NCBI GenBank assembly: GCA_021821305.1
Contig: JAKACP010000001.1
Coordinates: 196,934 to 260,933 of the forward strand
Direction: 5' to 3'
Origin: a bacterium
GTDB taxonomy: Bacteria > Patescibacteriota > Minisyncoccia > Moranbacterales > UBA1568
Length of the DNA: 64,000 bases
In this document: piece after piece, positions 16,710 to 38,851 of the stretch
Numbering within the stretch: position 1 is the stretch's first letter
Layout: each line of letters opens with the position of its first letter
Translations under genes and position numbers: made by a program
Notes under the pieces: model-generated
The model's database searches: none
What the model saw: only the letters and a program-made list of their open reading frames with translations
Told to the model about the DNA's origin: nothing

Positions 16710-16732
16710 GCTTCCTTACCGAATATGTTTTC

Positions 16733-17006: not shown

Positions 17007-17019
17007 TACGAGTACCACC

Positions 17020-18483: not shown

Positions 18484-18503
18484 GTGCCGCCCCGGCGACC
18501 ATG

Positions 18504-18540
18504 TGAAAAACCTGACGGTATCCCGTCAGGTTCTTTTTTT
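18504..18540. terminator. Bidirectional rho-independent terminator
   Basis: Stem cctgacgg/ccgtcagg with T/A runs on both sides; it sits between convergent genes. Confidence 0.6.
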
Positions 18541-18564
18541 GTGTTCGATCCGAGTAAGGGTGGG

Positions 18565-23843: not shown

Positions 23844-23854
23844 GGAATATTTTT

Positions 23855-23992
23855 GAAAGCACAGGTCACAGAACACAAAACGCCAAACAAGACACAAAAT
23901 ATGAAATACAAACATGAAACCAAACATCCGCTTGTGCTTTGAGAATTGTGTTTTGTTTGGATTTTTGTGCTTTCGAACTTTGTGTTTTTAGC
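23855..23992. repeat. Family-2 AT-rich A/C-rich palindromic element, copy D, between the nrdD body and the glycyl-radical ORF
   Basis: Arms cacaaaacgccaaacaagacacaaaat / attgtgttttgtttggatttttgtg. Similar to copies at 45301 and 48456. Confidence 0.6.
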
Positions 23993-24021
23993 AAAAATAA
24001 GTAATACGTAACAATAAAAGT

Positions 24022-24270
24022 ATGCGGTGCCATGATTGCGGAAAGGAGCTCGTGAAGGGGGCGGAGTACATGCCGTATCGGGTCGGAGATAGCGGGTTCG
24101 CCAAGTGTCGGGCGTGCCACGAGGCGGATCCGGTGCTCCGCGGCTTCCAGGAGGCCGAGGTCTACTCGCGCGTCGTCGGCTATATCCGCCCGGTCAGACA
24201 GTGGAACAAGGGCAAGCAGGCGGAGTTCGGCGACCGGAAGGAATATGTGGCGGAAGGTCGCGCGTGCTAG
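24022..24270 (+). CDS. Stand-alone NrdD C-terminal glycyl-radical domain (Zn ribbon + RVVGY...WNKGKQAEFGDR)
   Basis: 82-aa ORF with CxxC...CxxC followed by the class III RNR glycyl-radical motif SRVVGYIRPVRQWNKGKQAEF. Confidence 0.6.
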   Translation: MRCHDCGKELVKGAEYMPYRVGDSGFAKCRACHEADPVLRGFQEAEVYSRVVGYIRPVRQWNKGKQAEFGDRKEYVAEGRAC

Positions 24271-24274
24271 ATAC

Positions 24275-24445
24275 GCCCGCTCAACCCGGATTCCTTTCGT
24301 TCCCGACCGCATCCTCGCCGCCCGGTTTCTTCTTTTCAAAAATTTCCCTCAATCGACGGCATCTCGAGGAAATTTTTGAAGAAGAAACGGGCTTACTCGA
24401 GCAATATGCGGTTCCCGGCAAACGAAAGGAATCCGGGTTGAGCGG
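24275..24445. repeat. ~170-bp near-perfect palindrome (nested inverted repeats) upstream of nrdG
   Basis: acgcccgctcaacccggattcctttcgtt ... aacgaaaggaatccgggttgagcgggct. An inner pair ttcttttcaaaaatttcc / ggaaatttttgaagaagaa is nested inside. Confidence 0.7.
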
Positions 24446-24474
24446 GCTCAATTCCTTCTCCGTGACTCATCCGT

Positions 24475-25176
24475 ATGCTCGTCGGCGGTTTCCAAAAATT
24501 GACGCTCATCGATTATCCGGGAAAGGTCGCGACCACCGTCTTTACGGTCGGGTGCAATTTCCGGTGTCCGTTCTGCCATAATCCGGAGCTCATCGACTTC
24601 CCGAAAGGCGAACTGCCGACGTATCGGAAGAACGAGGAAGCATTCTTCGATTTCCTCGAAAAGAGGAGGGGTCTCCTCGACGGGGTATGCGTGACGGGCG
24701 GCGAACCGACGGTCCAGCCGGACCTCCTGGAATTCCTGGAAAAGGTGAAGAATATGGGGTTTCTCGTGAAACTCGATACGAACGGGAGCCGTCCGGAGAT
24801 CGTCGCGGAAGTGATCGGGCGAGGCCTCGCCGATTTCTTCGCGATGGACATCAAGAACCGGATGGGGCGCTACGGCGAGACATCGGGCTCGGACGTGTCG
24901 GAGGAACGGATCCGGGAAAGCATCCGGCGGATCCGGGAAAGCGGAACGCCGTACGAGTTCCGGACGACGGTCGTGCCGGGTCTCCACGACGAGAGCGATT
25001 TCGACGGCATCGCGGAGCTGATCGACGGGGCGCCGACGTATTATCTGCAGGAGTTCCGCGATTTCCGTATCCTCTCGCCGGGGCTCCGTGACCGCGCGAA
25101 GGGAAAGACGATCGATCTCGACGCGATAGCGGTGAGGCTCGCTCCGCGTTTCGGGAAGGTGGGCGTCCGCCGGTGA
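24475..25176 (+). CDS. nrdG: Anaerobic ribonucleotide reductase activating protein (radical SAM)
   Basis: CNFRCPFCHN radical-SAM cysteine motif, adjacent to nrdD. Confidence 0.85.
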   Translation: MLVGGFQKLTLIDYPGKVATTVFTVGCNFRCPFCHNPELIDFPKGELPTYRKNEEAFFDFLEKRRGLLDGVCVTGGEPTVQPDLLEFLEKVKNMGFLVKLDTNGSRPEIVAEVIGRGLADFFAMDIKNRMGRYGETSGSDVSEERIRESIRRIRESGTPYEFRTTVVPGLHDESDFDGIAELIDGAPTYYLQEFRDFRILSPGLRDRAKGKTIDLDAIAVRLAPRFGKVGVRR

Positions 25177-25679
25177 GGTCTTTGTCAGGGGGAAAACGAA
25201 AATATCCGGAAAGCGAAATCCCGTCTTCCTGACCGAGGACGCTCGCGGTCGCCGGAATTTCCTTCCCGGATATTTTCGTGCGATACGTCGCAAAGTAAAA
25301 CCGCCCCCGTTCAGTGTGGGCGGTTCGTGTTTTCGGTCTGCGGGGTCTCTTATTATAAGAGACCCATGTTTCCGAAGAGCGTCAACGTGACGACCGGCAT
25401 GAGGGCGAGAAGAAAGGCGAATGCCATCTCATCGTTCTCCGCCGCTTTCTTGCAATCGGTGCAAGAATGCTCCTGCGCTTCCGACGTCCGTCCTGAGACT
25501 TCGTCGGCGCTGACCATGGGCCTTTCAGCTTCCATAGTTTTTTCTTACTGTTTATGTCGTCGAAAAGAAAAAACGGGAATCCTCGCTTTGAGGGCACCCG
25601 TTTCTCACTTCAACATATCCATTATACATCAAAAAAACGGGAAAGTCAAGGCGGAGCGGCATCGATATGTAAAGTATGA

Positions 25680-25708
25680 TTGACATACGCCGATTTTCGG
25701 GGTAGGGT
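25680..25708 (+). promoter_or_regulatory. Promoter (TTGACA-17-TAGGGT), preceded by the conserved box gatgtaaagta
   Basis: Same upstream box and -35 context as the promoter at 26314. Confidence 0.45.
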
Positions 25709-25714
25709 ATCCGT

Positions 25715-25924
25715 ATGAAAGAGATCTTGTCCAATGCCGTCAGGAAACGTCGCGAAGAGGAAGGCGTGACGCAAGAGGAGCTCGCCGAGGAGGTCGGCGT
25801 GACGCGGCAGACCATCATCGCCATCGAGAAGGGGAACTATGCTCCCTCGGTTCTGCTCGCGCTCAAGATCGCGGAGTTTTTTCATAAACCGTTGGAAAAA
25901 ATATTTTGGTATGAGAAAAGATAA
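25715..25924 (+). CDS. XRE-family HTH transcriptional regulator
   Basis: 69 aa with an HTH_3 pattern (VTQEELAEEVGVTRQTIIAIEKG). Confidence 0.75.
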   Translation: MKEILSNAVRKRREEEGVTQEELAEEVGVTRQTIIAIEKGNYAPSVLLALKIAEFFHKPLEKIFWYEKR

Positions 25925-26288
25925 CTTTTTCGCCGCCCTCGATATCGTGCTCGCCGCGTTGCCGGTCCTTATGCTTCTCCTCATCTGGGATCCATTCGGC
26001 TGGTTCGGACTCTCTGATTTCTGGATGATGGCCTCGACCGGTGTGTTCGTCGCGAGCATCGTCCCGTTCCTCGCGTTCGTATGGCGGGAAAAGGCGGAGG
26101 ACGAGCGGGAAGAGGTTCACCTCGCCATCGCCGGCCGCGTGGCGTTTCTCGCCGGCGCGAGCGTGCTCGCCTTCGCCATCGTCCTCTCCGTCCTCGCGCA
26201 CAAGCTCGGGCCCTGGCTCCCGCTCGCGCTCGCGACCATGATCGTGGCGAAGATCGGTACGCTCGCGTATCTCCGCGCAAAAAAATAG
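25911..26288 (+). CDS. Small membrane protein partnered with the XRE regulator
   Basis: Overlaps the XRE stop by 14 nt; three to four TM helices. Confidence 0.45.
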   Translation: MRKDNFFAALDIVLAALPVLMLLLIWDPFGWFGLSDFWMMASTGVFVASIVPFLAFVWREKAEDEREEVHLAIAGRVAFLAGASVLAFAIVLSVLAHKLGPWLPLALATMIVAKIGTLAYLRAKK

Positions 26289-26313
26289 CGAAAAGAGCTG
26301 ATGTAAAGTAAAC

Positions 26314-26342
26314 TTGACATACGTTTGCCTGGTAGGTATACT
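26314..26342 (+). promoter_or_regulatory. Promoter (TTGACA-17-TATACT), preceded by the conserved box gatgtaaagta
   Basis: Near-consensus hexamers. It lies inside the longest ORF prediction, which argues for the 26370 start. Confidence 0.5.
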
Positions 26343-26369
26343 GAAACGGTAATCTTTGTTTTTTGCACT

Positions 26370-27293
26370 ATGCAAAACGATATGATGCAGGGGTCCGGTG
26401 CGCCGATGCCGGGGAAGTCATCGCTTCCGCTGGTGATCGGTACGCTCGTCGCGGTCGTCGTCGTTGGGGCGTTCTACTTCGTGACGCGAAGCGATGAGAA
26501 GATGGAGGGCGATGCGATGATGGAGGCATCGAAGGACGATGCGATGATGACGGAGGAGAAAGACGAGAAGATGGAGGGCGAGGCAATGATGGAGAAGCGG
26601 GAAGTCACCGTGACGCTCGGCGCGCAGAACGCGTCCGGCCAGGAGGGAAAGGCGACGCTCGTCGAAACGGACGGGAAGACCAAGGTGACGATCGCTATCG
26701 GATCGGGTACGGCGGGAATCGCTCAGCCGGCCCATATCCATGTCGGTTCGTGCCCCGCTCCCGGAGCGGTGAAGTATCCGCTCACGAACGTCGTCGACGG
26801 CCGGTCGGAGACCGTGCTCGACGTGTCCTTGGAGACGCTCACCAAGGAACTGCCGCTTGCGATCAACGTGCACAAGTCGAAGGATGACGCGAAGACCTAC
26901 GTCTCATGCGGCGATATCACGGCCGCCGCGATGAGCGGAGAGGCGATGATGGAGAAAAAAACGGATGGGGCCATGATGACAAGCGCGGGATCATACGAGA
27001 CGTATGAGGCATCCAAGCTCGCGATGGCCAAGGAGGGGAAGGTCGTGTTGTTCTTCCGCGCCTCATGGTGCCCGACCTGTCGCGCGCTCGACGCGTCGAT
27101 ACGGAAGGAAGCCTCGGCGATCCCCGGGAACCTGACCATCCTTGACGTGGATTATGATACCTACAAGGATCTCAAGGCGAAGTACGGCGTGACCACGCAG
27201 CACACGCTGGTGCAGGTGGACGCCGACGGGAGGGAGATCACGAAATGGGTCGGCAGCGAGAATCTCGCGGAACTCGTGGCGAAACTGAAGTAG
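26370..27293 (+). CDS. Membrane-anchored Met/His-rich putative copper-binding domain fused to a thioredoxin
   Basis: Met-rich repeats (EGDAMMEASKDDAMMTEEKDEKMEGEAMMEK), AHIHVGSC, and a C-terminal WCPTC thioredoxin motif. Confidence 0.55.
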   Translation: MQNDMMQGSGAPMPGKSSLPLVIGTLVAVVVVGAFYFVTRSDEKMEGDAMMEASKDDAMMTEEKDEKMEGEAMMEKREVTVTLGAQNASGQEGKATLVETDGKTKVTIAIGSGTAGIAQPAHIHVGSCPAPGAVKYPLTNVVDGRSETVLDVSLETLTKELPLAINVHKSKDDAKTYVSCGDITAAAMSGEAMMEKKTDGAMMTSAGSYETYEASKLAMAKEGKVVLFFRASWCPTCRALDASIRKEASAIPGNLTILDVDYDTYKDLKAKYGVTTQHTLVQVDADGREITKWVGSENLAELVAKLK

Positions 27294-27357
27294 ATCGCGT
27301 ATCCGCACTCCTCTCCGGCGACATTCCGGAGAGGTCGCGAATCCGTGATATCACCAT

Positions 27358-29109
27358 ATGCTCACCTTGTTGCTCTTCGCCTTTCTTTCGGGGCTCGTGA
27401 CGATAGCGGCTCCGTGCATCTGGCCGATCCTGCCGATCATCCTCTCTTCGGCGGCGACCGGCGGGAAACGGCGTCCGCTCGGGATCGTGACCGGGTTGGT
27501 CGCGAGTTTCACGGTGGCCACGCTCGCGCTCTCGTCCCTCGTCCGCGCGCTCGGCTTTTCTCCGGACGGCCTCCGACTGTTTTCCGTCGTCGTGATCGCG
27601 CTCCTCGGCGTGTCGCTCCTCGTCCCGGCAGTCGGCACGAGACTCGAGGGTTTCGTCAGCCGCCTCCTGGGGCGTTTCGGGAAGTCCCGGGCCGAGGGAG
27701 CCGGATTCGGCTCCGGATTCCTGACGGGCGCCGCGCTCGGCATCGTCTGGGCTCCCTGTGCCGGGCCGATACTCGCCGCCGTGGCCACGCTCGCCGCGAC
27801 CCGGTCGGTTTCGATCGAAGCGGTGCTGGTGACGCTCGCGTTCGGCGTCGGCATCGGCATACCGCTCTTCCTGTTCGCGATATTCGGACAGAGGCTGTTC
27901 TCGGCCAACCGGTTCCTCCGGGCGTATACGGGACGCATCCAGCAGGTATTCGGCGTCATCATGATACTCGCGGCGTTCGCGATCTATACCGGATATGACA
28001 AGACGCTCCAGTCGAAGCTTCTCGATCTCTTTCCGAACTATGGAAGCTTCCTCAACCGGTTCGAGGACCGGCCGGAAGTCGAGAAAGCGCTCGATGACTT
28101 GCGGAAAGATTCGAGCGGTGGCCTGTCGGGCGATAGGACGGAATCGAAAGCGTCCGAATCGGGACTACCCGTGCTCGGAACGGCACCTGAATTCCGCGGA
28201 ATCTCGAATTGGCTCAATACCGACGGAAAGCCGCTCGCAATGGCGGACCTGCGGGGGAAGGTGGTGCTCGTCGATTTCTGGACGTACAGCTGTATCAACT
28301 GCATCCGGACGCTTCCGTATGTGACTGGATGGTATAAGAAATATAAAGATGACGGATTGGTTGTCGTCGGTGTGCATACGCCGGAATTCGCTTTCGAACA
28401 CAAGACGAAGAACGTGGCGGATGCGATGCGTCGGTATGGTATCGAGTACCCGGTAGCCCAGGACAATGACTATGGGACGTGGCAGGCCTATTCGAACCGC
28501 TACTGGCCGGCGCACTATCTCATCGACGCGGAAGGCCGGGTGCGCTATACGCACTTCGGCGAAGGGAAATACGACGAAACGGAAAAGAATATCCAGAAGC
28601 TCCTCGAGGAAGCCGGGATGATGGCGGAGAAACAAGAAGTGCTTTCGATAACAGGGGAAGGGACGACGCGTGGTCAGACGCCCGAAACCTATCTCGGGCT
28701 CGCCCGCATGGATCGGTTCGCCTCTCCCGAGAGAGCGGAACCGCTGTCCCGGACGTATTCGATCCCGGAGACGATACGGCTCCATTCGTTCGCCTACGGC
28801 GGGGAATGGAATCTCGATGCCGAACGGGCGATGACGGGAACCGGCTCGTCGCTCGCGCTCCGTTTCCGGGGGAACAAGGTGTTCCTCGTGCTCGCGCCGC
28901 CTCCCGGTTCGATCGGGACGGTACGGGTGCTCCTCGATGGAGCGACGGTCACGGGCGATGCGGGCGCGGATGTCGTCGACGGCACGGTGACGGTCGATTC
29001 CGATCGGCTCTACGAGCTCATCGATCTTCATGGAAGGGACGGCGAGCATACGCTCCGCCTCGAGTTCGACACCCCGGGGACCGCCGCATACGCCTTCACG
29101 TTCGGATAG
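27358..29109 (+). CDS. CcdA/DsbD-family thiol:disulfide membrane transporter fused to a TlpA-like thioredoxin and a C-terminal domain
   Basis: TM Cys motifs (APCIWP, WAPCAGP) and a WTYSCINCIRT thioredoxin-like motif. Confidence 0.7.
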   Translation: MLTLLLFAFLSGLVTIAAPCIWPILPIILSSAATGGKRRPLGIVTGLVASFTVATLALSSLVRALGFSPDGLRLFSVVVIALLGVSLLVPAVGTRLEGFVSRLLGRFGKSRAEGAGFGSGFLTGAALGIVWAPCAGPILAAVATLAATRSVSIEAVLVTLAFGVGIGIPLFLFAIFGQRLFSANRFLRAYTGRIQQVFGVIMILAAFAIYTGYDKTLQSKLLDLFPNYGSFLNRFEDRPEVEKALDDLRKDSSGGLSGDRTESKASESGLPVLGTAPEFRGISNWLNTDGKPLAMADLRGKVVLVDFWTYSCINCIRTLPYVTGWYKKYKDDGLVVVGVHTPEFAFEHKTKNVADAMRRYGIEYPVAQDNDYGTWQAYSNRYWPAHYLIDAEGRVRYTHFGEGKYDETEKNIQKLLEEAGMMAEKQEVLSITGEGTTRGQTPETYLGLARMDRFASPERAEPLSRTYSIPETIRLHSFAYGGEWNLDAERAMTGTGSSLALRFRGNKVFLVLAPPPGSIGTVRVLLDGATVTGDAGADVVDGTVTVDSDRLYELIDLHGRDGEHTLRLEFDTPGTAAYAFTFG

Positions 29110-29167
29110 GATGGTGGACTGTCAAAGGGCGCCCGGAAGGGCGTTTTTTGTTTTTTCCGTTCCATGC

Positions 29168-29208
29168 TATACTCCATGTACCCATACCCTGGGTACGGGT
29201 ACGGAGTA
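29168..29208. promoter_or_regulatory. Candidate CsoR operator (GC-rich inverted repeat) overlapping the csoR promoter
   Basis: atactccatgtacccataccctgggtacgggtacggagtat forms a TACCC...GGGTA palindrome. A tatact -10 is at 29167-29172. Confidence 0.5.
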
Positions 29209-29229
29209 TTCATAAGGATAAAGAAGAGT

Positions 29230-29508
29230 ATGGATCATCACAAGAACCGCGAGAAGGTGCTCGTGAATTACCGGAAGGCGAGAGGGCTCCTTGAGAAGCT
29301 GATCGACATGACCGAGAACGGGAAGTATTGCGTCGACATCATGACGCAGAACCTCGCGGTCGCCGGGCTGCTCCGGTCGGTGCAGGAGATGCTTCTCGAG
29401 GATCACTTGAACTCCTGTTTCCGCGGCGCGATGGAGAGCGGAAGCGAAAAAAAGAAACGGGCGATGATCGATGAGATCCTCACGGTGACGAAACTCAACA
29501 ACAAATGA
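29230..29508 (+). CDS. csoR: Copper-sensing transcriptional repressor CsoR
   Basis: DUF156 family with a Cys...His...Cys layout (YCVDIM...EDHLNSCF). It leads the copper island. Confidence 0.7.
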   Translation: MDHHKNREKVLVNYRKARGLLEKLIDMTENGKYCVDIMTQNLAVAGLLRSVQEMLLEDHLNSCFRGAMESGSEKKKRAMIDEILTVTKLNNK

Positions 29509-30866
29509 TTATGAACAAGAAAGTTTTCCCCGTGAAGGGCATGCACTGCAAATCATGCGAGATACTGGCCGAGGAGGAGCTCGCGAAGGTCGCGGGAGTG
29601 AAGAAGGCGGCCACGGATTTCCGGAGCGGGACCGTGACTATTTTCTATGAAGGGGAGGCACCGTCGGATGCCGCGCTCGCGGACGCGATCCGGCGCGCCG
29701 GATACGAGGTCGGAGAGAACGATCGCGCGTGGTTCTCGCGGGATTTCTCCTCCTATCTGGAGACGCTCGCCGCCGCCGTTCTCGTCGGCGTCTTCTATCT
29801 CGTCGGGAAGAGCCAGGGATGGTTCTCACTTTCACTCGGGACGAGCGAGGGACTTGAGAGTCTCCCATTCGTCTTCGTGGTCGGGCTGACGGCCGGGGTT
29901 TCCACTTGCATGGCGATCGTCGGCGGTCTGGTGCTCGCGATTTCCGCACGCTTCGGCGAGCGGCACCCGGAGGCGAGCACGAAGCGCAAATTCGTCCCGC
30001 ACCTTTTCTTCAATCTCGGGCGGGTGGGCGGATTCACGCTCCTGGGCGGATTCCTCGGCTTTCTCGGGTCGACGATACAGCCCTCCGCGTTTTCGGTCGG
30101 TATCATCACTGCCCTCGTCGCGATCGTCATGGTGCTGCTCGGTCTCCAGCTCCTTGAGCTTTTTCCGCGGATTTCCGCATGGAAAGTGATGCTTCCGAAA
30201 GGAATCGCGAGAGTTCTTGGCATTCAAACGCATTCGCAGAAGGAATACAGTCATGGAAGGGCGGCGTTGCTCGGCGCGCTCACGTTCTTTCTCCCGTGCG
30301 GCTTCACGCAGGCGGTCCAGCTCTTCGTCGTGACCCAAGGAGACATACTTCTCGGCGCACTCACGATGGGAACGTTCGCGTTCGGGACGGCACCGGGGCT
30401 GCTTGGAATCGGTGGGCTTTCCTCGGTCGTCAGGGGCGTGTTCGGACGGTACTTCTTCCGGACGGCCGGTGTCGCGGTCATCGCGCTCGGCGCGTTCAAT
30501 TTTCAGAACGGGCTGAACCTGCTCAATCTCGGAAAAGTGCAGGTGGTCGCTCCGGAGGCGCAGGAGGCGGTGAAAGGATCGTCTCCGCAGGAAAAGAAAG
30601 AGCCGCAGGTCATCCATATGACGCAGGAGGCGGACGGATACTATCCGAATGAGTTTACGGTGAAGAAGGGCCAGCCGGTGCAATGGGTGATCGATTCGAA
30701 AGATTCGTATACCTGCGCTGTATCACTTATTGCCCCGAAGATCGGCGTGAAAAGGATTCTTCAGTCCGGCGAGAATGTCGTCACCTTCACGCCCAAAGCG
30801 GTCGGGACGATTCCGTTCTCCTGCTCGATGGGGATGTATCGCGGTGTTATCAAAGTCATCGAATAA
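29505..30866 (+). CDS. Fusion protein: HMA (MxCxxC) domain + multi-TM domain + C-terminal cupredoxin-like domain
   Basis: N-terminal GMHCKSCE; ~8 TM helices; the C-terminal ~90 aa have the Cys/Met pattern of a cupredoxin fold. Confidence 0.6.
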   Translation: MIMNKKVFPVKGMHCKSCEILAEEELAKVAGVKKAATDFRSGTVTIFYEGEAPSDAALADAIRRAGYEVGENDRAWFSRDFSSYLETLAAAVLVGVFYLVGKSQGWFSLSLGTSEGLESLPFVFVVGLTAGVSTCMAIVGGLVLAISARFGERHPEASTKRKFVPHLFFNLGRVGGFTLLGGFLGFLGSTIQPSAFSVGIITALVAIVMVLLGLQLLELFPRISAWKVMLPKGIARVLGIQTHSQKEYSHGRAALLGALTFFLPCGFTQAVQLFVVTQGDILLGALTMGTFAFGTAPGLLGIGGLSSVVRGVFGRYFFRTAGVAVIALGAFNFQNGLNLLNLGKVQVVAPEAQEAVKGSSPQEKKEPQVIHMTQEADGYYPNEFTVKKGQPVQWVIDSKDSYTCAVSLIAPKIGVKRILQSGENVVTFTPKAVGTIPFSCSMGMYRGVIKVIE

Positions 30867-30912
30867 TTCCACGGTAGGTATGGCGTAATATTAAGTCGAT
30901 AGGAACAGTCAT

Positions 30913-31239
30913 ATGAAACTCGGCATCATCCTGCAGTCCAACATCCCGGAGCATGTGTGGAATACATTCCGTCTCGGGATCACCGCGCTCAATGCCGGTC
31001 ATGAAGTGGATGTTTTCCTCCTGAACGAAGGATCGGAGCTCGAAACCGTTCCCGATAGCGAAACGTTCGATGTCTCCGTAAAAGTGAAGGAATTCAAGGA
31101 GTTGCAAGGGAATATCCGTGCCTGCGGGACCTGCCTTCAGGTGCGTGGCAGGGAAGGCTCTGGAACGTGTCCGGTTTCCACGATGTCCGATCTGCTCGGA
31201 ATGATCGAGCGTTCGGACAAGGTGCTGGTATTCGGTTGA
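30913..31239 (+). CDS. DsrE/DsrF-like family protein
   Basis: 108 aa with the DsrE-like Rossmann-like pattern and a conserved Cys (ACGTCL). Confidence 0.5.
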   Translation: MKLGIILQSNIPEHVWNTFRLGITALNAGHEVDVFLLNEGSELETVPDSETFDVSVKVKEFKELQGNIRACGTCLQVRGREGSGTCPVSTMSDLLGMIERSDKVLVFG

Positions 31240-31267
31240 TCGATGATAAATCAGTAAGAATACGCGT

Positions 31268-31528
31268 ATGATGTGGGGTTTCGACGGTGGACCGGCATGG
31301 TCCGGATTCGGATGGTTCGGCGGGGTATTCATGATCCTATGGTGGGTCGTGATCATTGCCGGTATCATCGCGCTTGTGAAGTGGATCGCGGCTTCCTCGG
31401 GCGGGTCGCATGAGTCGTGCGGTCATGAGAAGCGCGGCGACAGCGCGATGGATATCCTCAAGGAGCGCTATGCGAGCGGAGAGATCGACAAGAAGGAATT
31501 CGAGGAAAAAAAGAAGGATATAAGCTGA
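31268..31528 (+). CDS. SHOCT-domain membrane protein
   Basis: N-terminal TM helix and a C-terminal [27 protein letters not shown] pattern. Confidence 0.55.
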
Positions 31529-31535
31529 AACGGAT

Positions 31536-33809
31536 ATGAACGAACCGAAAACATTCGCCATCAAAGGGATGCACTGCGCGTCGTGCGCGGGTATCATCGA
31601 GAAGACCTTCCGGAAAACGGAGGGCGTGATTTCGGCTGAGGTGAATTACGGTACCGAGACCGCCAAAGTCGCGTTCGACGCCGCGAAAACCGATCCGGGC
31701 CGTCTATCGGAGAGCATCAAACCGTTTGGGTATTCACTGGAGGTCCCGCTGGCGGAGGATCATTCGATGCATACTGGCGCGGGACAATCGAAACACGAGA
31801 AATTGATGGAGCTCGATGAGATGAGGAAGAAAGTCGTCTCGGTGCTTTTCTTGGCCGCTTTTGCCGCGCTCATCATGGGCTGGGATATCCTCGCGGAATT
31901 CGGCATCATTCCCGCGATGTCCTATACGGTGGAAGAATTCCTGCATCACCTGCTTCCGCTCTTCGCGACCTACACCCTCTTCGTTGTTGGGCAGCCGTAT
32001 CTCGCGGGCGTCTATCGGTTCCTCCGGTACGGCAAGGCGAATATGGATACGCTCATCGGTATCGGGACCTCCGCGGCGTTTCTCTACAGCTTCGCCGTCT
32101 CCGCGCTCGAGGACGTGCTCCGACCGTTTATCGATGTCGAAAATACCTACTACGACGTGACGATCGTCGTCATCGCGTTCATCACGCTCGGGAAATATCT
32201 CGAGGCGCGGTCGAAGCTCAGGACCGGAGATGCGATCGAGAAGCTCCTGAACCTGCAAGCGAAGACCGCTCTCGTCATCCGTGACGGCAAGGAGATCGAA
32301 ATCCCGGTGGGCGAGGTCGTGGTCGGCGACACGGTCATCGTGAAACCGGCATCGAAGATCCCGGTCGACGGCGTCGTCCTTGAGGGCCTTTCGTACGTCG
32401 ATGAGTCGATGCTCTCCGGTGAGCCGATGCCGCTTGAAAAAGAGGCGGGTGATACGGTAGCCGCCGGGACGATGAATACGAGCGGCACGTTCACGTTCGA
32501 GGCGACGAAAATCGGACAAGAGACGATGCTCGCGCATATCGTGAAGATGGTGTCGGAAGCGCAGGGGAGCAAGGCTCCGATCCAGGCCATGGCCGACCGC
32601 ATCTCGGCGGTGTTCGTCCCCATCGTGCTCGTGATCGCGGTCGTGGCGCTCGCCGCGTGGCTCTTTTTCGGGACGCAGTCCTTCGGATTTTCGCAGGCGC
32701 TTTCGTACGGGTTGGTCTCCTTCGTCTCCGTGCTCATCATCGCGTGTCCGTGCGCTTTGGGGCTCGCGACGCCGACGGCGATCATCGTCGGGGTCGGCAA
32801 GGGCGCACGGGAAGGCATCCTCGTCAAGGATGCGGCGACGCTCGAAAAGCTTCATGAGGCGACGGTCGTGGTCGTCGATAAGACCGGGACGATCACGAAA
32901 GGGAAACCGGAGATCGCGGCCATACGGCCGTCCGAGGGACACACGGAGAAGGAGATCGTCTCGATACTCGCCTCCCTCGAGTCCCGGTCCGAGCATCCGA
33001 TAGCCGACGCAATCGTTTCCTATGCGAAGGAAAACAGTATCGATACGGTCCCGGTCGGGCAGTTCGAAATGCTGAGAGGCAGGGGAGTGCGCGGGATCAT
33101 CGATGGCACGGAGTACTCCGCGGGCAACGCGAAGTTCATGAAAGATCTCAAGCTACCGTTCGACGCGGCGTCCGTAGGACAGGAAACGCGGGAAGGGAAG
33201 ACCCCGGTCATCCTAGCTACCCGTGAAGCGGTGCTCGGTGTCGTCTTCGTCGCCGATGCGGTCAAACCGGAGGCACGGAAGGCGGTGGAAGATCTCCACG
33301 CGCTCGGGATACGGGTCGTGATGTTGACCGGGGACGACCGGAATACCGCCCGATTCATCGCGGACAGCGTCGGTATCAAGGATGTGGAGGCTGAGGTGCT
33401 CCCGGAGGGAAAGATGGCCGTAGTGAGGGCGCTCCAGGCGAAAGGCGAGATCGTGGCGATGGTCGGCGACGGTGTCAACGACGCGCCGGCGCTCGCGGCC
33501 GCCGATATCGGTATCGCGATGAGCACGGGGACGGATGCCGCGATAGAATCGGCCGGCGTGACGCTCCTTCATGGCGATATCTCGAAGCTCGTGAAAGCGG
33601 TCCGGCTCTCGAAGATCACGATGCGCGGCATCAGGCAGAATCTCTTCTGGGCGTTCGCGTACAACATCGTCGGGATTCCGCTCGCGGCCGGCCTCTTCTA
33701 CCCGGTCTTCGGATGGCTGCTCAATCCGGTGTTCGCCGGACTCGCCATGGCGCTTTCTTCCGTGTCGGTCGTGTCTAACTCGCTTCGCCTGAAGGCGAAA
33801 AAATTGTAA
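31536..33809 (+). CDS. copA: Copper-translocating P-type ATPase
   Basis: HMA GMHCASCA, TGE, CPC (ACPCALGLA), DKTGT, and GDGVNDAPAL. Confidence 0.9.
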   Translation: MNEPKTFAIKGMHCASCAGIIEKTFRKTEGVISAEVNYGTETAKVAFDAAKTDPGRLSESIKPFGYSLEVPLAEDHSMHTGAGQSKHEKLMELDEMRKKVVSVLFLAAFAALIMGWDILAEFGIIPAMSYTVEEFLHHLLPLFATYTLFVVGQPYLAGVYRFLRYGKANMDTLIGIGTSAAFLYSFAVSALEDVLRPFIDVENTYYDVTIVVIAFITLGKYLEARSKLRTGDAIEKLLNLQAKTALVIRDGKEIEIPVGEVVVGDTVIVKPASKIPVDGVVLEGLSYVDESMLSGEPMPLEKEAGDTVAAGTMNTSGTFTFEATKIGQETMLAHIVKMVSEAQGSKAPIQAMADRISAVFVPIVLVIAVVALAAWLFFGTQSFGFSQALSYGLVSFVSVLIIACPCALGLATPTAIIVGVGKGAREGILVKDAATLEKLHEATVVVVDKTGTITKGKPEIAAIRPSEGHTEKEIVSILASLESRSEHPIADAIVSYAKENSIDTVPVGQFEMLRGRGVRGIIDGTEYSAGNAKFMKDLKLPFDAASVGQETREGKTPVILATREAVLGVVFVADAVKPEARKAVEDLHALGIRVVMLTGDDRNTARFIADSVGIKDVEAEVLPEGKMAVVRALQAKGEIVAMVGDGVNDAPALAAADIGIAMSTGTDAAIESAGVTLLHGDISKLVKAVRLSKITMRGIRQNLFWAFAYNIVGIPLAAGLFYPVFGWLLNPVFAGLAMALSSVSVVSNSLRLKAKKL

Positions 33810-33948
33810 TTCAGAACTTATGCGTTTGGTACATTTCTTTGTTGCCGCTCCGGTACTCGACGCGGTACATGTATCAGTACAGCTTACTCCGTTCCTCGCG
33901 GCGCCTCGAACTGTACTCAAACGCATAAGTCCTGTAATCACTTAATGC

Positions 33949-35577
33949 ATGCGTATGATGAAAATAATTTTTGCGATCATCGTCTTCGCGGCGATCGCGG
34001 GAGGAATATATGTTTTGACGGGCGGCCCGGGTGTCCGCAACGGAAGCCCGGCATCATCCGCGGTTCCGGCAACCGGAGTGTTTCCGCAGGATGTTTCCGA
34101 CCTTCCGGAGGCGAAACCGACTCCCGAGATCACGCTTGGGGACGGGGAGACATACGATGTCGGGATTTTCCCGGTGAAGAAGAAGATCGGCGACACGTGG
34201 GTGCGGATGCTCTCGTACAACGGATCCGTCCCGGGACCGGTTTTCCGCGTGAAGGAAGGCGCGGAAGCGACGATCCGTCTCAAGAACGACGGCGACCTCG
34301 AAACGACGCTCCACTCGCACGGATTGCGTCTCGAGAACCTCTTCGACGGCGTACCAGGCGTGACGCAGGAGCCGATCAAAGTCGGCGATACCTTCGAATA
34401 CCGTCTGAAATTTTCCGATCCTGGTATGTACTGGTATCACCCGCACGTGCGGACGGATTACGGGCTCGAGGCGGGGCTCTACGGGACATATATCGTCGAT
34501 CCGACGGATGCGGGGTACTGGCCGAAGGCGAATCGCGAACTCTCGCTCACGCTCGACGATATCGCGCTCGGAAAAGATGGTCGTCCGCTTTCCTTCGACC
34601 GCGGTGAGACGGACCACACGCTCATGGGGCGGTTCGGCGACACGATGTTCGTGAACGGCGAGACGGACTACCGGTTCGCCGCGGCACCGGGGGAGGTTGT
34701 CCGGCTCTACCTCGTCAATACGGCGAATGTCCGCCCGTTCGATTTCACGATTCCCGGCGCGAAGATGAAACTCGTCGGTGCGGACCTCGGGCGGTATGCG
34801 CGCGAGACGTTCGTCGAAAGCGTCATGCTTTCGCCCGGTGAACGGAGAGTGGTCGATGTCCTCTTCGGAATGCCCGGAGAATTCCCGATCGAGCACCGGA
34901 CCCCGGAGAAACGGTATGCGCTCGGATCGGTCTCCGTCTCCGGAAGCCCGATCGCGGTATCGTACGCCGAGGAATTCGCCGCTCTTCGGGAGAATAGGGC
35001 GGTCGCGGAAGAGATGAATCCGCTCTTCGGTGAGTACCTCTCAAAGGCGCCGGACAAGAAGCTCGATCTCACGCTCGCGATGGGCGGGATGATGGGGGCG
35101 CCCTCGGGGATGCACCGGATGTCCGGTGGCGGGATGATGGAGGACGCGATGATGGGCATGGGGGACGACGGCGAAACCATCGAGTGGGAAGACGAGATGG
35201 CGGCGATGAATACGGGTTCGACAACCAAGACCCTCACGTGGAAACTCCGCGATGCCGCGACGGGCAAGGAGAACATGAGGATCGATGATTGGAAATTCAA
35301 AGTCGGTGACAAAGTGAAAATCCGGATATTCAATGATTCCTCCTCGATGCATCCGATGCAGCACCCGATACATTTCCACGGCCAGCGCTTCGTCGTGCTC
35401 TCGACGAACGGCGTCAGGAACGCCGATCCCGTCTGGCAGGACACGACGCTCCTCCCGAAGGGCGAGACCGTCGACATCCTCCTCGAGCTTACGAACCCGG
35501 GAGAGTGGATGGCGCACTGCCATATCGTCGAACATGCCGAAGCGGGAATGATGATGACCTTTTCAGTCGAAAAGTAA
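33949..35577 (+). CDS. Multicopper oxidase (CueO/CopA-like) with a Met-rich insert
   Basis: Copper-ligand motifs HSHG, WYHPH, HPIHFHG, HCHIVEHAEAGMM. Met-rich loop MGGMMGAPSGMHRMSGGGMMEDAMMGMG. Confidence 0.85.
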   Translation: MRMMKIIFAIIVFAAIAGGIYVLTGGPGVRNGSPASSAVPATGVFPQDVSDLPEAKPTPEITLGDGETYDVGIFPVKKKIGDTWVRMLSYNGSVPGPVFRVKEGAEATIRLKNDGDLETTLHSHGLRLENLFDGVPGVTQEPIKVGDTFEYRLKFSDPGMYWYHPHVRTDYGLEAGLYGTYIVDPTDAGYWPKANRELSLTLDDIALGKDGRPLSFDRGETDHTLMGRFGDTMFVNGETDYRFAAAPGEVVRLYLVNTANVRPFDFTIPGAKMKLVGADLGRYARETFVESVMLSPGERRVVDVLFGMPGEFPIEHRTPEKRYALGSVSVSGSPIAVSYAEEFAALRENRAVAEEMNPLFGEYLSKAPDKKLDLTLAMGGMMGAPSGMHRMSGGGMMEDAMMGMGDDGETIEWEDEMAAMNTGSTTKTLTWKLRDAATGKENMRIDDWKFKVGDKVKIRIFNDSSSMHPMQHPIHFHGQRFVVLSTNGVRNADPVWQDTTLLPKGETVDILLELTNPGEWMAHCHIVEHAEAGMMMTFSVEK

Positions 35578-35605
35578 GTGGATGTAACAAGTAAGGACCA
35601 AACAT

Positions 35606-36013
35606 ATGCAGGAATCGATCATGACGACGCCGTACGGATACTCCGTGCGTGTCAAGGCCTCCTTCAGGGAGGCGGTGGAGCGGGTGAAGGAGGCGTTCGC
35701 GGCCGAAAAGTTCGGCGTCCTTTCGGAAATCGACGTGAAGGCGAAAATGAAGGAGAAGCTCGGGGAAGATATGGAGGACTATGTCATCCTCGGGATGTGC
35801 AATCCGAAACTCGCGTACGGGGCGCTCCGGATGGAAACCGAGATCGGCCTTCTCCTCCCATGCAACGTGATCGTCTACCGCACGGACGGCGTGACGCATG
35901 TCGCTGCCCAACGGCCGCAGGTGATGCTCGCCGTCACCGGGAACGAATCGATCGTCGCCGCCGCGGAGGAAGCGGACGAGAAAATCCTCCGCGCGATCCG
36001 ATCACTCGTATAG
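35606..36013 (+). CDS. DUF302-domain protein
   Basis: 135-aa family pattern that commonly sits in metal/sulfur operons. Confidence 0.5.
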   Translation: MQESIMTTPYGYSVRVKASFREAVERVKEAFAAEKFGVLSEIDVKAKMKEKLGEDMEDYVILGMCNPKLAYGALRMETEIGLLLPCNVIVYRTDGVTHVAAQRPQVMLAVTGNESIVAAAEEADEKILRAIRSLV

Positions 36014-36028
36014 TGAGAGTTCCGTCAT

Positions 36029-36595
36029 ATGAAAGGAATCCTCATCGTCCTTCTCGTCGTTTTTTCCGTGATGGAAATCATGGCGTGGAAGGTGTATACG
36101 GCTTCGAAAGAGGAGCGGCAAGCGGATAGTTCCGTACAGGGCGTACCGATCTCGGCCCAAACAGGCATCGCGTCGGCTCCTCCCGAGGAGACGGATGCGA
36201 ATATCGCGGAGGATGCGGAACCGTCGGCCGAAAAAAACGTCGCCGACCTGCCCGCCGGCGATACCGGGAGCGAGGAGAACGCGACGTATCCGCGCATCAG
36301 TGTGGAAGAAAAAAACGGAGTGACGGAGCGGACGATCCACATGGGGGTGCGACAATGGGCGTGGGATCCGGCGGAGATACGCGCGAAACAGGGCGAACTC
36401 GTGCGGCTCGTGATCCACAACGCCGACGTGCGGCACGCGATCGTCATACCCGATCTCGGCGTCGAGGCGGATATTCCCGAAGAGGGAGCTATCGTCGAAT
36501 TCACCGCGTCCCGGCGAGGGACATTCGATTTCCTGTGTGCCACCTATTGCGGGACGGGCCATGCCATGATGCAGGGGAGAATAGTCATCGAATGA
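36029..36595 (+). CDS. Membrane-anchored cupredoxin with a CuA-like Cys-x3-Cys-x3-His-x2-Met site
   Basis: C-terminal FLCATYCGTGHAMMQG. Confidence 0.6.
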   Translation: MKGILIVLLVVFSVMEIMAWKVYTASKEERQADSSVQGVPISAQTGIASAPPEETDANIAEDAEPSAEKNVADLPAGDTGSEENATYPRISVEEKNGVTERTIHMGVRQWAWDPAEIRAKQGELVRLVIHNADVRHAIVIPDLGVEADIPEEGAIVEFTASRRGTFDFLCATYCGTGHAMMQGRIVIE

Positions 36596-36797
36596 TTCGC
36601 CGCAAGCAAATCTCCGCATCTCTTGTAGTAAGGGAGAGAGACTGCTCTTGTGTGCCCACCTCCATTTTTAAACGATCCGCGCGAGCACTCATATGAACCC
36701 TCCGGTTGCCCTTACGGCTGGCCGTGCGACCGATGCGGCCTTGGTGAAAATGGCTGGGCTGCATTAAGTATTTTGATAGAGGAAAGAGGTGAAACAT

Positions 36798-36941
36798 ATG
36801 ATGGGATATTATTACGGCGACATGATGGGTGGCTCCGGGTGGGGCGCGTGGCCTTTGTTCGGGTCGGTGCTTTACGTGCTCGTGCTCGTGCTCATGGTGC
36901 TCGGTATCGTCGCGCTGTGGAAGTACATCGCGAAGAAGTGA
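36798..36941 (+). CDS. 47-aa single-TM peptide resembling the N-terminus of the SHOCT protein at 31268
   Basis: MMGYYYGDMMGGSGWGAWPLF...VLVL...LWKYIAKK parallels [19 protein letters not shown]...ALVKWIA. Confidence 0.3.
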   Translation: MMGYYYGDMMGGSGWGAWPLFGSVLYVLVLVLMVLGIVALWKYIAKK

Positions 36942-37063
36942 CCGCTGATATCGGATCGGGTGGCGGCTCCCCGGTTTGACAGGGTGGCTTTTTTCGGGCA
37001 TAATGAACGGTGATCAGGGAAAGGCGGCGACGCCTTTTTCTTGTCGTTTTTTAGAAAGGATCT

Positions 37064-38851
37064 ATGAATATACGCAACATCGCCATCATCGCGCACGTCG
37101 ACCACGGGAAGACGACCCTGACGGACGGGCTTCTGAAACAGACCGGGTATGCCCAGGAAGGCTTCTCGATGGATACGAATGCGCTCGAGAAGGAGCGCGG
37201 GATCACCATTTACGCCAAGAACGCCTCGCTTCTCTGGAAGGATACGAAGATCAACATCGTGGACACGCCCGGACATGCGGATTTCGGCTCGGAAGTGGAG
37301 CGTGTGCTCCGCTCGATCGATGACGTGGTGCTCGTCGTCGACGCGCAGGAAGGTCCGATGCCGCAGACGCGGTTCGTACTCAAGAAGTCGCTCGAACTGG
37401 GCCTGAAACCGATCGTCGTCATCAACAAGATCGACAAGCCGGCCGCACGACCCGAAGAGGTCAAGGAGATGGTATTCGAGCTCTTTCTCGATCTCGGCGC
37501 CAACGACGCTCAGCTTGATTTTCCTGTGATCTACGCGATCGCACGGGACGGAATCGCGAAGAGGACGCTCGAAGAGGAGGGAAAGGACCTCTCTCCGCTC
37601 CTCGACACGGTGCTCGAGCGCGTCGAGGAAGCTCCGCATGATATGGATTCGCCGTTTCGGGCACAGCCGTTCAATCTCGGCTATGACAACTTCCTCGGCC
37701 GTCTCGCCGTCGCCCGCGTCTACGAGGGCCGAGTGAAGACGAACGAGCAGGTATGGATCAAGAGCCCGGCCGGCAAGGCCGAGACGGGGCGTATCGTCAA
37801 GATTTTCACGTTCAAGGGACTTGACCGCGAGGAAGCCACCGAGGCGACGGCGGGAGATATCGTCATGATCGCCGGGCTCCCGAACGTGGAAATCGGGGAC
37901 ACCCTGTGTGCCTCGGCGGATGCGGAGACGCTTCCCGCGATTTCGATCGACGAGCCGACCATCTCGCTTTTCTTCCTCGTCAACGACAGTCCGTTCGCCG
38001 GCCGCGAGGGCAAGTTCGTCACGAACAAACAGCTCCGTGAGCGCCTCATGAAGGAACTCGAGATCAACGTCGGTCTCCGAATCGATTTCTCGGAGACGGA
38101 CCGCTACAAGGTGTTCGGCCGCGGCGAGCTCCATATCGCGATCCTGCTCGAAAACATGCGTCGCGAGGGATATGAAGTGCAGGTGTCCCAGCCGCAGGTC
38201 ATCATAAAGGAAGAGGACGGCGTGAAAGTCGAACCGTTCGAGGAGGTGATCGTCGAATGCCCCATGGAGGTCACCGGCACGGTCATCGAGAAGATCGGGA
38301 AGCGTAAGGGAATCATGATGGAAATGAAGGAAGGCTCCGGCGGCTTCCAGCGACTCGTGTTCGAGGTCCCGACGCGCGGACTCCTCGGATACCGCAACGA
38401 ATTCATCATCGATACCAAGGGCGAGGGGACCATCTCGAGCCGCTTCGTCGGGTTCAAGCCGTACGTCGGCGAGATCTCGCATCGCGACGTCGGCTCGATG
38501 ATCTCGATGGTCCAGGGCAAAGTCGCGGCGTTCGCACTCGACAATCTCCAGACCCGCGGCACGCTCTATATCGGTCCTGCAGTGGAGGTGTACGAGGGCA
38601 TGGTCATCGGCAACGCCGTGAAGGGCGCCGATATGGCTGTCAATCCGATCAAGGGAAAGAACCTGACCAACATGCGTTCCTCCGGCGCGGATGAGGCGAT
38701 CAAGCTCACGCCGCCGTGGGAACTCTCCATCGAACGCGGACTCGAGATCATCTCGGAGGACGAGTACCTCGAGGTCACGCCGAACGCCGTACGTCTCCGC
38801 AAGAAGCTTCTCACCGAAACCGACAGGACGAAGGCGGGAAGAAAGAAGTAG
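37064..38851 (+). CDS. typA: Translational GTPase TypA/BipA
   Basis: NIAIIAHVDHGKTTL G1 motif, DTPGHADF, NKID; EF-G-like domains. Confidence 0.9.
   Translation: MNIRNIAIIAHVDHGKTTLTDGLLKQTGYAQEGFSMDTNALEKERGITIYAKNASLLWKDTKINIVDTPGHADFGSEVERVLRSIDDVVLVVDAQEGPMPQTRFVLKKSLELGLKPIVVINKIDKPAARPEEVKEMVFELFLDLGANDAQLDFPVIYAIARDGIAKRTLEEEGKDLSPLLDTVLERVEEAPHDMDSPFRAQPFNLGYDNFLGRLAVARVYEGRVKTNEQVWIKSPAGKAETGRIVKIFTFKGLDREEATEATAGDIVMIAGLPNVEIGDTLCASADAETLPAISIDEPTISLFFLVNDSPFAGREGKFVTNKQLRERLMKELEINVGLRIDFSETDRYKVFGRGELHIAILLENMRREGYEVQVSQPQVIIKEEDGVKVEPFEEVIVECPMEVTGTVIEKIGKRKGIMMEMKEGSGGFQRLVFEVPTRGLLGYRNEFIIDTKGEGTISSRFVGFKPYVGEISHRDVGSMISMVQGKVAAFALDNLQTRGTLYIGPAVEVYEGMVIGNAVKGADMAVNPIKGKNLTNMRSSGADEAIKLTPPWELSIERGLEIISEDEYLEVTPNAVRLRKKLLTETDRTKAGRKK

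Follow-up and report, generated by a model that had tools for sequence, protein, structure and literature searches.

A probable CsoR–CopA copper-resistance locus in a Moranbacterales genome and its predicted HMA–DsbD-like–CupA-like membrane fusion

The DNA analysed here (the window) is a 64-kb stretch of contig JAKACP010000001.1, from a tiny, uncultured Moranbacterales member of the Patescibacteriota. Between nrdD/nrdG (21717–25176) on one side and typA (37064–38851) on the other, its list of open reading frames (ORFs) contains a block of 13 ORFs, all on the + strand (25715–36941), among them genes for a CsoR regulator, a Cu(I)-exporting ATPase (CopA) and, between the two, a membrane protein in which an HMA domain, a DsbD-like transmembrane (TM) domain and a CupA-like cupredoxin are fused. 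A preliminary description had presented the block as one copper-homeostasis island with several unusual domain fusions. Its copper assignment is borne out by the Cys-His-Cys (C-H-C) ligand set of CsoR, and all of its domain calls were recovered in profile searches (Pfam, NCBIfam). The block is nevertheless two adjacent, independent units, A (25715–29150) and B (29165–37041), and the fusions are less unusual than supposed: the CcdA–TlpA protein is DipZ-like, and the HMA–TM–cupredoxin protein is a core member of the cop operon in the candidate phyla radiation (CPR) and belongs to a large family. We consider it probable that unit A is a thiol module and unit B a copper-resistance operon autoregulated by CsoR, with a mechanism that can be read from homologues. 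Taken as a whole, the cluster represents a variation on the known CsoR/CopA system and, beyond the fusion, is largely conventional; what sets it apart appears to be this widespread, two-faced and predicted copper-binding membrane protein.

Two adjacent units between nrdDG and typA

Unit A has promoter-like and terminator-like sites of its own. A sigma-70-like promoter (TTGACA-17-TATACT, 26314–26342, + strand, 11/12 consensus positions) lies upstream of its thioredoxin genes, an intrinsic-terminator-like hairpin of 12 pairs with a T-run (29123–29150, + strand) ends the unit, and box scans found no CsoR-type palindrome near the promoter-like site. Loci for comparison (L numbers) were fetched through the fusion and other genes of the block, the contig search with the single fusion protein yielding six loci. 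In two of the fetched loci, from Parcubacteria (L024, 6323–9677) and Minisyncoccia (L025, 6331–9596), the four genes of unit A, encoding an XRE regulator, a membrane protein of ~120 residues, a CHRD–thioredoxin protein and a CcdA–TlpA protein, are kept in the same order, with no cop gene within 7 kb. Because of these sites and this recurrence away from cop genes, we regard unit A as independent, which contradicts the single island first proposed.

Unit B begins at the csoR promoter and closes with a terminator-like hairpin upstream of typA (37016–37041, + strand), a strong site in a consensus scan. GC content is level across the region (0.56–0.62), and horizontal gain as an island was rejected on the basis of this flat profile together with the conserved synteny of the flanks. 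Every CPR cop locus examined (L001–L012 and L016–L019) carries the triad of csoR, fusion and copA, with fusion identities of 44–77%, and accessory content varies even among close relatives. Judged from these comparisons, the nrdDG–typA slot appears to be a variable chromosomal site around a fixed three-gene core. The third member of the core, CopA (31536–33809, + strand; Pfam E1-E2_ATPase, Hydrolase and HMA), shows in translation the motifs GMHCASC, ACPCALG (CPC), DKTGT, AFAYN (YN) and MALSS (MxxSS), the signature of P1B-1 ATPases that export Cu(I).

CsoR and the palindrome at its promoter

The regulator gene (29230–29508, + strand) encodes 92 residues that match the all-helical Pfam domain Trns_repr_metal (DUF156, PF02583) with an E value of 2.9e-16 and 60 bits, against a cutoff of 22.8. 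Its start is likely at 29230 and not at 29164, the former being the nearest in-frame ATG that fits the lengths of the orthologues, and csoR of the closest relative is likewise called at 92 residues. With this start, the inverted repeat described earlier does precede csoR. The ligands Tyr33-Cys34, His59 and Cys63 align with Cys36/His61/Cys65 of Mycobacterium tuberculosis CsoR and with those of Geobacillus CsoR, and Tyr33, Cys34, His59 and Cys63 are invariant in seven CPR orthologues. The closest matches in the PDB are the CsoR structures 4M1P and 2HH7, with InrS also among the matches. The protein is thus best placed in the Cu(I)-sensing branch of the CsoR/RcnR family, for which Cu(I)-dependent release of DNA would be predicted.

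The CsoR family also includes CstR, whose operon contains tauE and sulfurtransferase genes, and one could propose that the regulator is a CstR-like persulfide sensor or an InrS/RcnR-like nickel/cobalt sensor and that the TauE/SafE-like and DsrE-like proteins handle sulfur. The DsrE-like gene of the block and a rhodanese gene in L012 would suit such a role, and His3/His4 at the N-terminus of the regulator complete an InrS-like H-C-H-C pattern, in keeping with the InrS match. These histidines, however, are not conserved in the Berkelbacteria orthologues, and the closest relative does without the DsrE-like gene. The regulator has an invariant His59, an equivalent of which CstR is not known to possess; the top PDB matches are bona fide CsoRs; and all core neighbours carry Cu(I) motifs (HMA, the CupA-like CxMxM, and CPC/YN/MxxSS of CopA). 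On these grounds a CstR-like or InrS-like regulator was rejected as highly improbable.

For the Cu(I)-sensing CsoR, the window offers a single candidate operator. The csoR promoter is marked by an extended −10 element, TGC-TATACT, read from the sequence at 29165–29173 (+ strand), within the segment ..TGCTATACTCCATGTACCCATACCCTGGGTACGGGTACGGAGTATTCATAAGG.. (29160–29229). An imperfect inverted repeat at 29169–29209, ATACTCC(AT)GTACCCATACCC T GGGTACGGGTACGGAGTAT, holds the core palindrome TACCCATACCC-T-GGGTACGGGTA (29179–29201), which begins 5 nt past the extended −10. The pattern TACCC-N(1-12)-GGGTA occurs only here in the 64 kb, where 0.12 occurrences are expected; the 23-nt core, allowing up to three mismatches, matches once in the window against none in 100 shuffles, and box scans of the full 64 kb turned up no further CsoR site.

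The repeat noted in the preliminary description is therefore real and unique in the window, and it has analogues at every csoR promoter compared: a palindrome was found upstream of each of the nine csoR genes inspected (the window and eight other loci). In the window, L010 and L012 it takes the form TACCCnTACCC-T-GGGTAnGGGTA just after TATACT; in L005, L007 and L009 it is GACCATGACCA-T-TGGTTATGGTnA in the same position, just after the −10; in L001, L002 and L003, ACCTACACC-N3-GGTGTAGGT lies between TTGACC and the −10; and in L004, ATACCCTCC-CCT-GGAGGGTAT abuts the −10. The −10 of the window aligns with TATACT/TATAGT in L010, L012, L007 and L009. Promoter position and dyad symmetry are thus conserved and both arms change together, the pattern expected at the site of a symmetric repressor, which lends good comparative support to the putative operator. 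These four different palindromes at nine promoters offer a ready system for studying how CsoR recognizes DNA. The set includes two closely related CsoR clades, that of the window and that of L007/L009 (~74% identical), with TACCC-type versus GACCA-type dyads. The CsoR of L010 (9683–9961) is 100% identical to that of the window, and a comparison of the two operators shows two or three changes in the flanking bases (CATGTACCC vs CATATACCC; GGGTACGG vs GGGTATTG), which points to bases that tolerate change.

In its C-H-C Cu(I) site the regulator resembles those of M. tuberculosis cso, Bacillus subtilis csoR/copZA and Listeria monocytogenes csoR-copA-copZ. With these CsoR-regulated cop operons unit B also has in common a GC-rich palindrome, its candidate operator, at the promoter of the operon itself, a CopA of the P1B-1 type encoded in the same operon and a chaperone function of the HMA type. 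It differs in that their chaperone is a free CopZ, whereas here it is the N-terminal domain of a seven-TM protein with a predicted external cupredoxin; in the nature of the operator, a doubled TACCC/GGGTA dyad that comes after the −10; and in its additional genes for a multicopper oxidase (MCO), a DUF302 protein, a CuA cupredoxin, a DsrE-like protein, a SHOCT protein and a peptide.

The fusion protein between CsoR and CopA

The fusion gene (29505–30866, + strand) encodes Pfam HMA, DsbD_2 and Cupredoxin_1 domains. The membrane part falls in the Pfam DsbD/CcdA clan (DsbD_2, E 2.9e-29; DsbD_TM, E 3e-7), and a search of the PDB with the whole-fusion profile returned no solved structure for this TM domain. 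Of the earlier reading as HMA plus eight TM segments plus cupredoxin, the domains hold and the helix count does not: the AlphaFold2 (AF2) model has seven helices, the second and fifth of which (core helices 1 and 4) are broken at C135 and C265.

Homologues number more than 4,000, and within the best 120 nearly every protein shares this set of three Pfam domains. Those named belong to Moranbacteria, Minisyncoccota, Roizmanbacteria and Microgenomates; NCBI annotates them as 'sulfite exporter TauE/SafE family' or 'UreH domain-containing'. An exhaustive search gave at least 923 clusters at 50% identity (E ≤1e-30), the top 150 being nearly all full length. Some members are longer (600–720 residues; P0090, P0092 and P0097) and continue through a Cys/Gly-rich linker, for example GGSCGGGGGSCGCG, into what by eye are one or two more cupredoxin-like domains with a C...CAMG motif; no extra hydrophobic segment was seen by eye between the CupA-like and the appended domains. 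A C-terminal HMA in these long variants was considered and dismissed, the extra domains reading by eye as cupredoxin-like with conserved Cys/Met motifs. On Berkelbacteria-like contigs (L016, 1151–2557; L018, 647–2053; L019, 1153–2559) the gene is called as two ORFs in some samples, one holding the HMA and half of the TM domain and the other the remaining half and the cupredoxin, and as an intact 468-residue gene in another sample; the split reflects either population-level frameshifts or assembly errors.

Across 42 aligned members the invariant residues comprise C15 and C18 (the CxxC of the HMA domain), C135-M136, H154-P155, H250 and P264-C265 and, further on, C404, C440, M442 and M444. The C-terminal domain matches Streptococcus pneumoniae CupA (2MRY/4F2E) with E 1.5e-9 in a single-sequence phmmer search and 7e-13 with a profile, and its next-nearest solved relative is the N-terminal domain of pneumococcal CopA. 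Cys74, Cys111, Met113 and Met115 of CupA, which form a binuclear S1/S2 Cu(I) site (PMC7558416), align with C404, C440, M442 and M444 of the fusion. Across the family, Lys and Arg together number ~12 in the loops predicted to face inwards and ~0.8 in those predicted to face outwards. From the helix count and this loop bias, the N-terminus with the HMA domain is predicted to lie inside and the cupredoxin outside. For a CPR cell the term periplasmic is doubtful, and extracytoplasmic is the safer wording.

Given these features, we tentatively suggest that the fusion could be a copper machine built on a DsbD/CcdA scaffold, in which Cu(I) would pass by ligand exchange from the HMA domain by way of His154/His250 and the buried Cys135/Met136/Cys265 to the external, binuclear CupA-like site. 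It might act as an ATP-independent export relay or as a two-faced chaperone serving CopA at entry and exit alike, and it may replace a free CopZ as the usual CopA partner in the CPR lineages sampled. The same scaffold could instead move electrons, with C135/C265 keeping the external C404/C440 reduced and copper leaving through CopA only. Membership of the DsbD/CcdA clan (DsbD_2, DsbD_TM) fits electron transfer, as do the two invariant cysteines, at which core helices 1 and 4 are interrupted in the manner of CcdA; the bis-thiolate S1 site of CupA is capable of redox chemistry (PMC7558416), and in this clade a DipZ reductase is encoded next door. An electron conduit, however, has no use for an invariant cytoplasmic HMA domain with its CxxC, the invariant Met136, His154 and His250 resemble metal ligands, the protein has no fused thioredoxin-fold partner, and some NCBI family names (UreH-like, TauE/SafE) point to transporters. 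With both sets of observations in view, we judge electron transfer to be rather unlikely.

By comparison with well-studied homologues, the following sequence of events can be proposed for unit B. Without copper, CsoR would bind the 2×(TACCC)/2×(GGGTA) dyad by the −10 and block transcription; Cu(I) on Cys34/His59/Cys63 would free it from the DNA, and CopA would then export Cu(I) from the cytoplasm. On the inside, the fusion may offer a CopZ-like HMA domain feeding Cu(I) to the export route; on the outside, it may capture Cu(I) on its CupA-like domain, received either along the buried Cys/Met/His path or at the exit of CopA. The Met-rich MCO encoded in this genome would there oxidize Cu(I) to Cu(II).

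Several considerations weigh against this picture. Its functional steps are drawn from sequence throughout. The confidence (pLDDT) of the AF2 model averages 70 for the fusion and lies at 50–70 over much of the membrane part, and the predicted topology is derived from the number of helices and the bias in charge. Because CupA is active on the cytoplasmic side (PMC7558416), placing a CupA-like domain outside is an extrapolation. At the DNA level the −35 element of the csoR promoter is poor, and there is one operator only, so that the MCO and the genes downstream of it could be under other control; the MCO gene is preceded by a structured 139-nt gap and the peptide gene by one of 200 nt that contains a promoter-like site, on account of which unit B may be more than one transcript.

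S. pneumoniae CupA (4F2E/2MRY) and the N-terminal cupredoxin of pneumococcal CopA (4F2F) are the nearest relatives of the C-terminal domain of the fusion, and the cupA gene, too, lies by copA. CupA, however, has one N-terminal TM anchor, is cytoplasmic and is controlled by CopY, whereas in the fusion seven TM helices precede the domain, which is predicted to be external and is under CsoR; the N-terminus of pneumococcal CopA is a cupredoxin and that of the window CopA an HMA domain. With the thiol-disulfide transporters DsbD, CcdA and ScsB the fusion shares a six-TM core with one cysteine per half at a helix break; it differs from them in having no thioredoxin-fold partner and in that both flanking domains are metal binders. 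Proteins combining HMA and DsbD_2, in part with DUF2318 (COG2836), are predicted members of the CsoR meta-regulon of Firmicutes (PMC4938975); the external domain of the fusion is a CupA-like cupredoxin and not DUF2318. Literature searches on DsbD_2 and copper, COG2836, and Patescibacteria and copper found no experimental work on the fusion architecture, and those on DUF302, SHOCT or CHRD and copper found no study of the fusion.

In the usual account of bacterial copper export, CopA works with a soluble CopZ or, in streptococci, with CupA in the cytoplasm. Across the CPR loci sampled, 17 in all, a gene situated between csoR and copA instead encodes a single polypeptide with a CopZ-like domain, a DsbD-like membrane domain that has a buried Cys pair and, by prediction, an outward-facing CupA-like domain. 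Should it move Cu(I) across the membrane or hand it over there, a thiolate-relay route would be added to the mechanisms of copper efflux, and at least about 900 clusters now labelled 'sulfite exporter TauE/SafE' would gain a function.

Unit A, the accessory genes and the flanks

Unit A starts with a 69-residue XRE-family helix-turn-helix regulator (25715–25924, + strand; Pfam HTH_3, E 9.9e-17), and genes of 69–72 codons of this family also head the module in L010, L012, L024 and L025. Its stop codon is overlapped by the ORF of a 125-residue multi-TM membrane protein (25911–26288, + strand), for which no Pfam or NCBIfam family matched; partners of 120–125 residues follow the XRE gene in L010, L024 and L025, with a weak match to DUF2178 there.

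The third gene (26370–27293, + strand) encodes a membrane-anchored protein in which the TM anchor is joined by a Met-rich linker to a beta domain of ~110 residues, and this in turn by a second Met-rich linker to a thioredoxin with the motif WCPTC. Only this C-terminal thioredoxin passes the Pfam threshold (E 5e-12). The 'Met/His-rich domain' that had been described as fused to it is instead a CHRD-like domain lying between the Met-rich linkers; the thioredoxin stands. The CHRD score (PF07452) of the window protein is 17.3 bits, below the cutoff of 24.1, which is passed by its homologues P0163 (42.6), P0166 (36) and P0179 (25.5), the last with the same architecture; the window domain is 43–52% identical to both CHRD repeats of P0166. 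The AF2 model scores above 93 (pLDDT) in both domains, and a Foldseek search of the PDB with it gave thioredoxins alone among the matches listed, none of them informative on the CHRD-like domain. H122, H124 and H168 are invariant across 44 aligned homologues, and PAHIHxG, VHKS and CGD are reminiscent of the copper-ligand and disulfide motifs of superoxide dismutase (SOD); a Cu,Zn-SOD-like fold is typical of CHRD domains (PMC13382577). Against PDB sequences the domain profile gave a non-significant match to the Cu-only enzyme SOD5 (E 0.11), a lead only; a copper site in this domain may be suspected.

Unit A ends with a DipZ-type protein (27358–29109, + strand; Pfam DsbD_TM, Redoxin and Thioredoxin_10, the last with E 6e-35), which joins a six-TM CcdA part, a TlpA/ResA-like thioredoxin (SCINC) and a Thioredoxin_10 C-terminal domain, a family built on M. 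tuberculosis DipZ. It matches in the PDB the structure of the C-terminal part of DipZ, 2HYX (E 6e-71), and CcdA 5VKV (E 6e-10), the motifs APCIWP, APCAGP and SCINC are present in the translation, and M. tuberculosis DipZ (Rv2874) has the same CcdA, TlpA-like and Thioredoxin_10 architecture. The pairing of such a reductase with a surface thioredoxin recalls pneumococcal CcdA–Etrx. In contrast to both systems, the thioredoxin of unit A bears Met-rich linkers and a CHRD-like domain in which three histidines are invariant, and the XRE/membrane-protein pair precedes.

Among cop relatives, unit A is present in L005 and L010, whereas L009 retains no more than a C-terminal remnant of it. In L012 the region upstream of csoR lacks it save for the XRE gene and a fragment of the membrane-protein gene, and the contigs of L007 and L008 end too near csoR for its presence to be judged. 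Given its recurrence in L024 and L025, unit A is a widespread CPR module that in this clade happens to adjoin the cop operon. Its XRE/membrane-protein pair suggests a control pair of the module's own, and the whole suggests a CPR-wide envelope redox module, probably a thiol reductase that is not copper-specific. DipZ would relay reducing power outwards from the cytoplasm and, with the CHRD–thioredoxin, would maintain surface thiols generally, which would help under copper stress too.

Downstream of copA, unit B encodes two further cuproprotein candidates with a DUF302 protein between them. The MCO (33949–35577, + strand; Pfam Cu-oxidase, Cu-oxidase_2 and Cu-oxidase_3) is a CueO-like three-domain enzyme with the motifs HSH, HPH, HPIHFH and HCHIVEH..M and a GGMMG-rich insert that is also visible as DNA repeats. 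It matches NCBIfam CueO with E 1.5e-44 and 152.7 bits, under the equivalog cutoff of 525 bits. Like Escherichia coli CueO and PcoA-type enzymes, it is built of three cupredoxin domains, shows the motifs of all four copper sites and carries its Met-rich insert close to the T1 site; unlike CueO, it has no twin-arginine (RR) signal, its N-terminus MRMMKIIFAIIVFAAIAGG being a hydrophobic anchor, so that it appears membrane-anchored or Sec-exported, and it is under CsoR and not CueR. The DUF302 protein of 135 residues (35606–36013, + strand; E 9e-25) is followed by the gene of a membrane-anchored CuA-type cupredoxin (36029–36595, + strand; Pfam COX2 and Cupredoxin_1), an adjacency of DUF302 and cupredoxin also found in L011 and L012. 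The cupredoxin carries the motif H-x33-CATYCGTGHAMM (H-x33-CxxxCxxxHxxM), and all five CuA ligands (H, C, C, H, M) align with the CuA domain of Thermus thermophilus ba3 (E 1.5e-11). Among the genes examined, which are those of the block and directly around it, none was noticed for a partner haem-copper oxidase subunit I or NosZ catalytic domain.

In rhizobia, TlpA reduces CoxB and ScoI. By analogy, the operon might serve mainly the maturation of cuproproteins, the fusion and CopA loading the MCO and the CuA protein, and DipZ and the thioredoxin reducing the CuA cysteines. A full CuA ligand set and a complete MCO do lie in one block, with a TlpA-like reductase and a thioredoxin upstream, and CopA-dependent MCO maturation is documented for Rhodobacter (PMC8456105). 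Against this, the core triad also stands in loci, such as L007 and L016–L019, whose fetched flanks contain neither an MCO gene nor a CuA gene, the thioredoxin/DipZ module is found elsewhere without a nearby cuproprotein gene, and CsoR logic would turn the genes on under copper excess. Such a main function is accordingly unlikely, and copper resistance remains the preferred role of unit B.

The gene order of the relatives illustrates how freely the surroundings of the triad vary. In L007 the triad is followed by a gene for a 46-residue peptide and typA; L010/L011 has the order of the window minus the DsrE-like gene and the peptide; and L012 has csoR, fusion, copA, rhodanese, an unknown gene, DUF302, a second P-type ATPase and a cupredoxin. 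In this last locus, 11388–18851 encodes a CopA of 1055 residues, the rhodanese in the place of other accessory genes of the window, a 184-residue protein, DUF302, a P-type ATPase without HMA and a cupredoxin of 109 residues. We would class the DsrE-like, SHOCT and DUF302 proteins, the CuA cupredoxin and the 47-residue peptide as lineage-variable accessories.

The DsrE/YchN-like protein (30913–31239, + strand; 108 residues; Pfam DsrE 29.1 bits, cutoff 22.7) contains a CGTC..RG motif, possibly equivalent to the catalytic cysteine of DsrE/TusD; it resembles E. coli YchN, with its CxxC..RG motif. Homologues are 72–78% identical across distant CPR lineages. In Berkelbacteria (L016–L019) XRE, DsrE and SHOCT genes lie beside csoR–fusion–copA; in L013–L015 the homologue lies beside an ArsR/Thioredoxin_3/ArsP_1 operon; and elsewhere it follows an ArsR-type regulator (L020) or lies by integrase or HNH genes (L021, L023). 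The link between copper and sulfur handling once read into this gene is speculation: it is absent from the otherwise matching operon of the closest relative (L010/L011), and its homologues stand by ArsR-type or mobile genes as often as by cop genes. Together with the rhodanese of L012, these contexts hint at a recurrent tie to metal(loid) stress loci.

The SHOCT protein (31268–31528, + strand; 86 residues) has a single TM segment and a C-terminal SHOCT domain (E 1.4e-9), and its gene holds the matching position in L010/L011. A SHOCT membrane protein of Haloferax is induced by silver (PMC10694973), which would fit a role in Cu(I)/Ag(I) stress. The last ORF of the block (36798–36941, + strand) encodes a single-TM peptide of 47 residues with a Met/Tyr/Gly-rich N-terminus; its proposed paralogy with the SHOCT protein holds to a modest degree (41% over 37 residues, pairwise E 3e-6, mostly in the TM segment), the two sharing an N-terminal Gly/Trp-rich segment and the TM helix. 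A peptide 79% identical to it directly follows copA in L007/L008.

The 139-nt gap between copA and the MCO gene (33810–33940) contains a long hairpin with 17-nt arms (CTTATGCGTTTGGTACA / TGTACTCAAACGCATAAG); the minimum free energy of its RNA is −48.3 kcal/mol (z = −5.8, with no shuffle folding equally well), no T-run follows it, and it is not repeated in the window. In the closest relative the hairpin is absent and the oxidase gene overlaps copA. RNA structure in the gap at 36596–36797 is not unusual (z −0.6), no repeats were found flanking the MCO–DUF302–CuA segment, and an Rfam scan of the 64-kb window yielded two tRNAs and nothing else, with no match in the gap that interrupts nrdD.

That gap belongs to a split of the gene for the anaerobic ribonucleotide reductase NrdD (21717–24270) into a 708-residue ORF, 178 AT-rich nucleotides and an 82-residue ORF, which matches the extreme C-terminus of NrdD, including a glycyl-radical-like motif RVVGY. 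An identical split is called in L009 and L012 and is for that reason not a sequencing error. Between nrdG and unit A, a 60-residue ORF on the − strand (25353–25535) encodes a CTDC motif and a hydrophobic C-terminal tail and is preceded by a promoter-like site with 11/12 consensus positions (25649–25621); counterparts of 54–60 residues are called at the matching position and strand in L009, L010 and L012.

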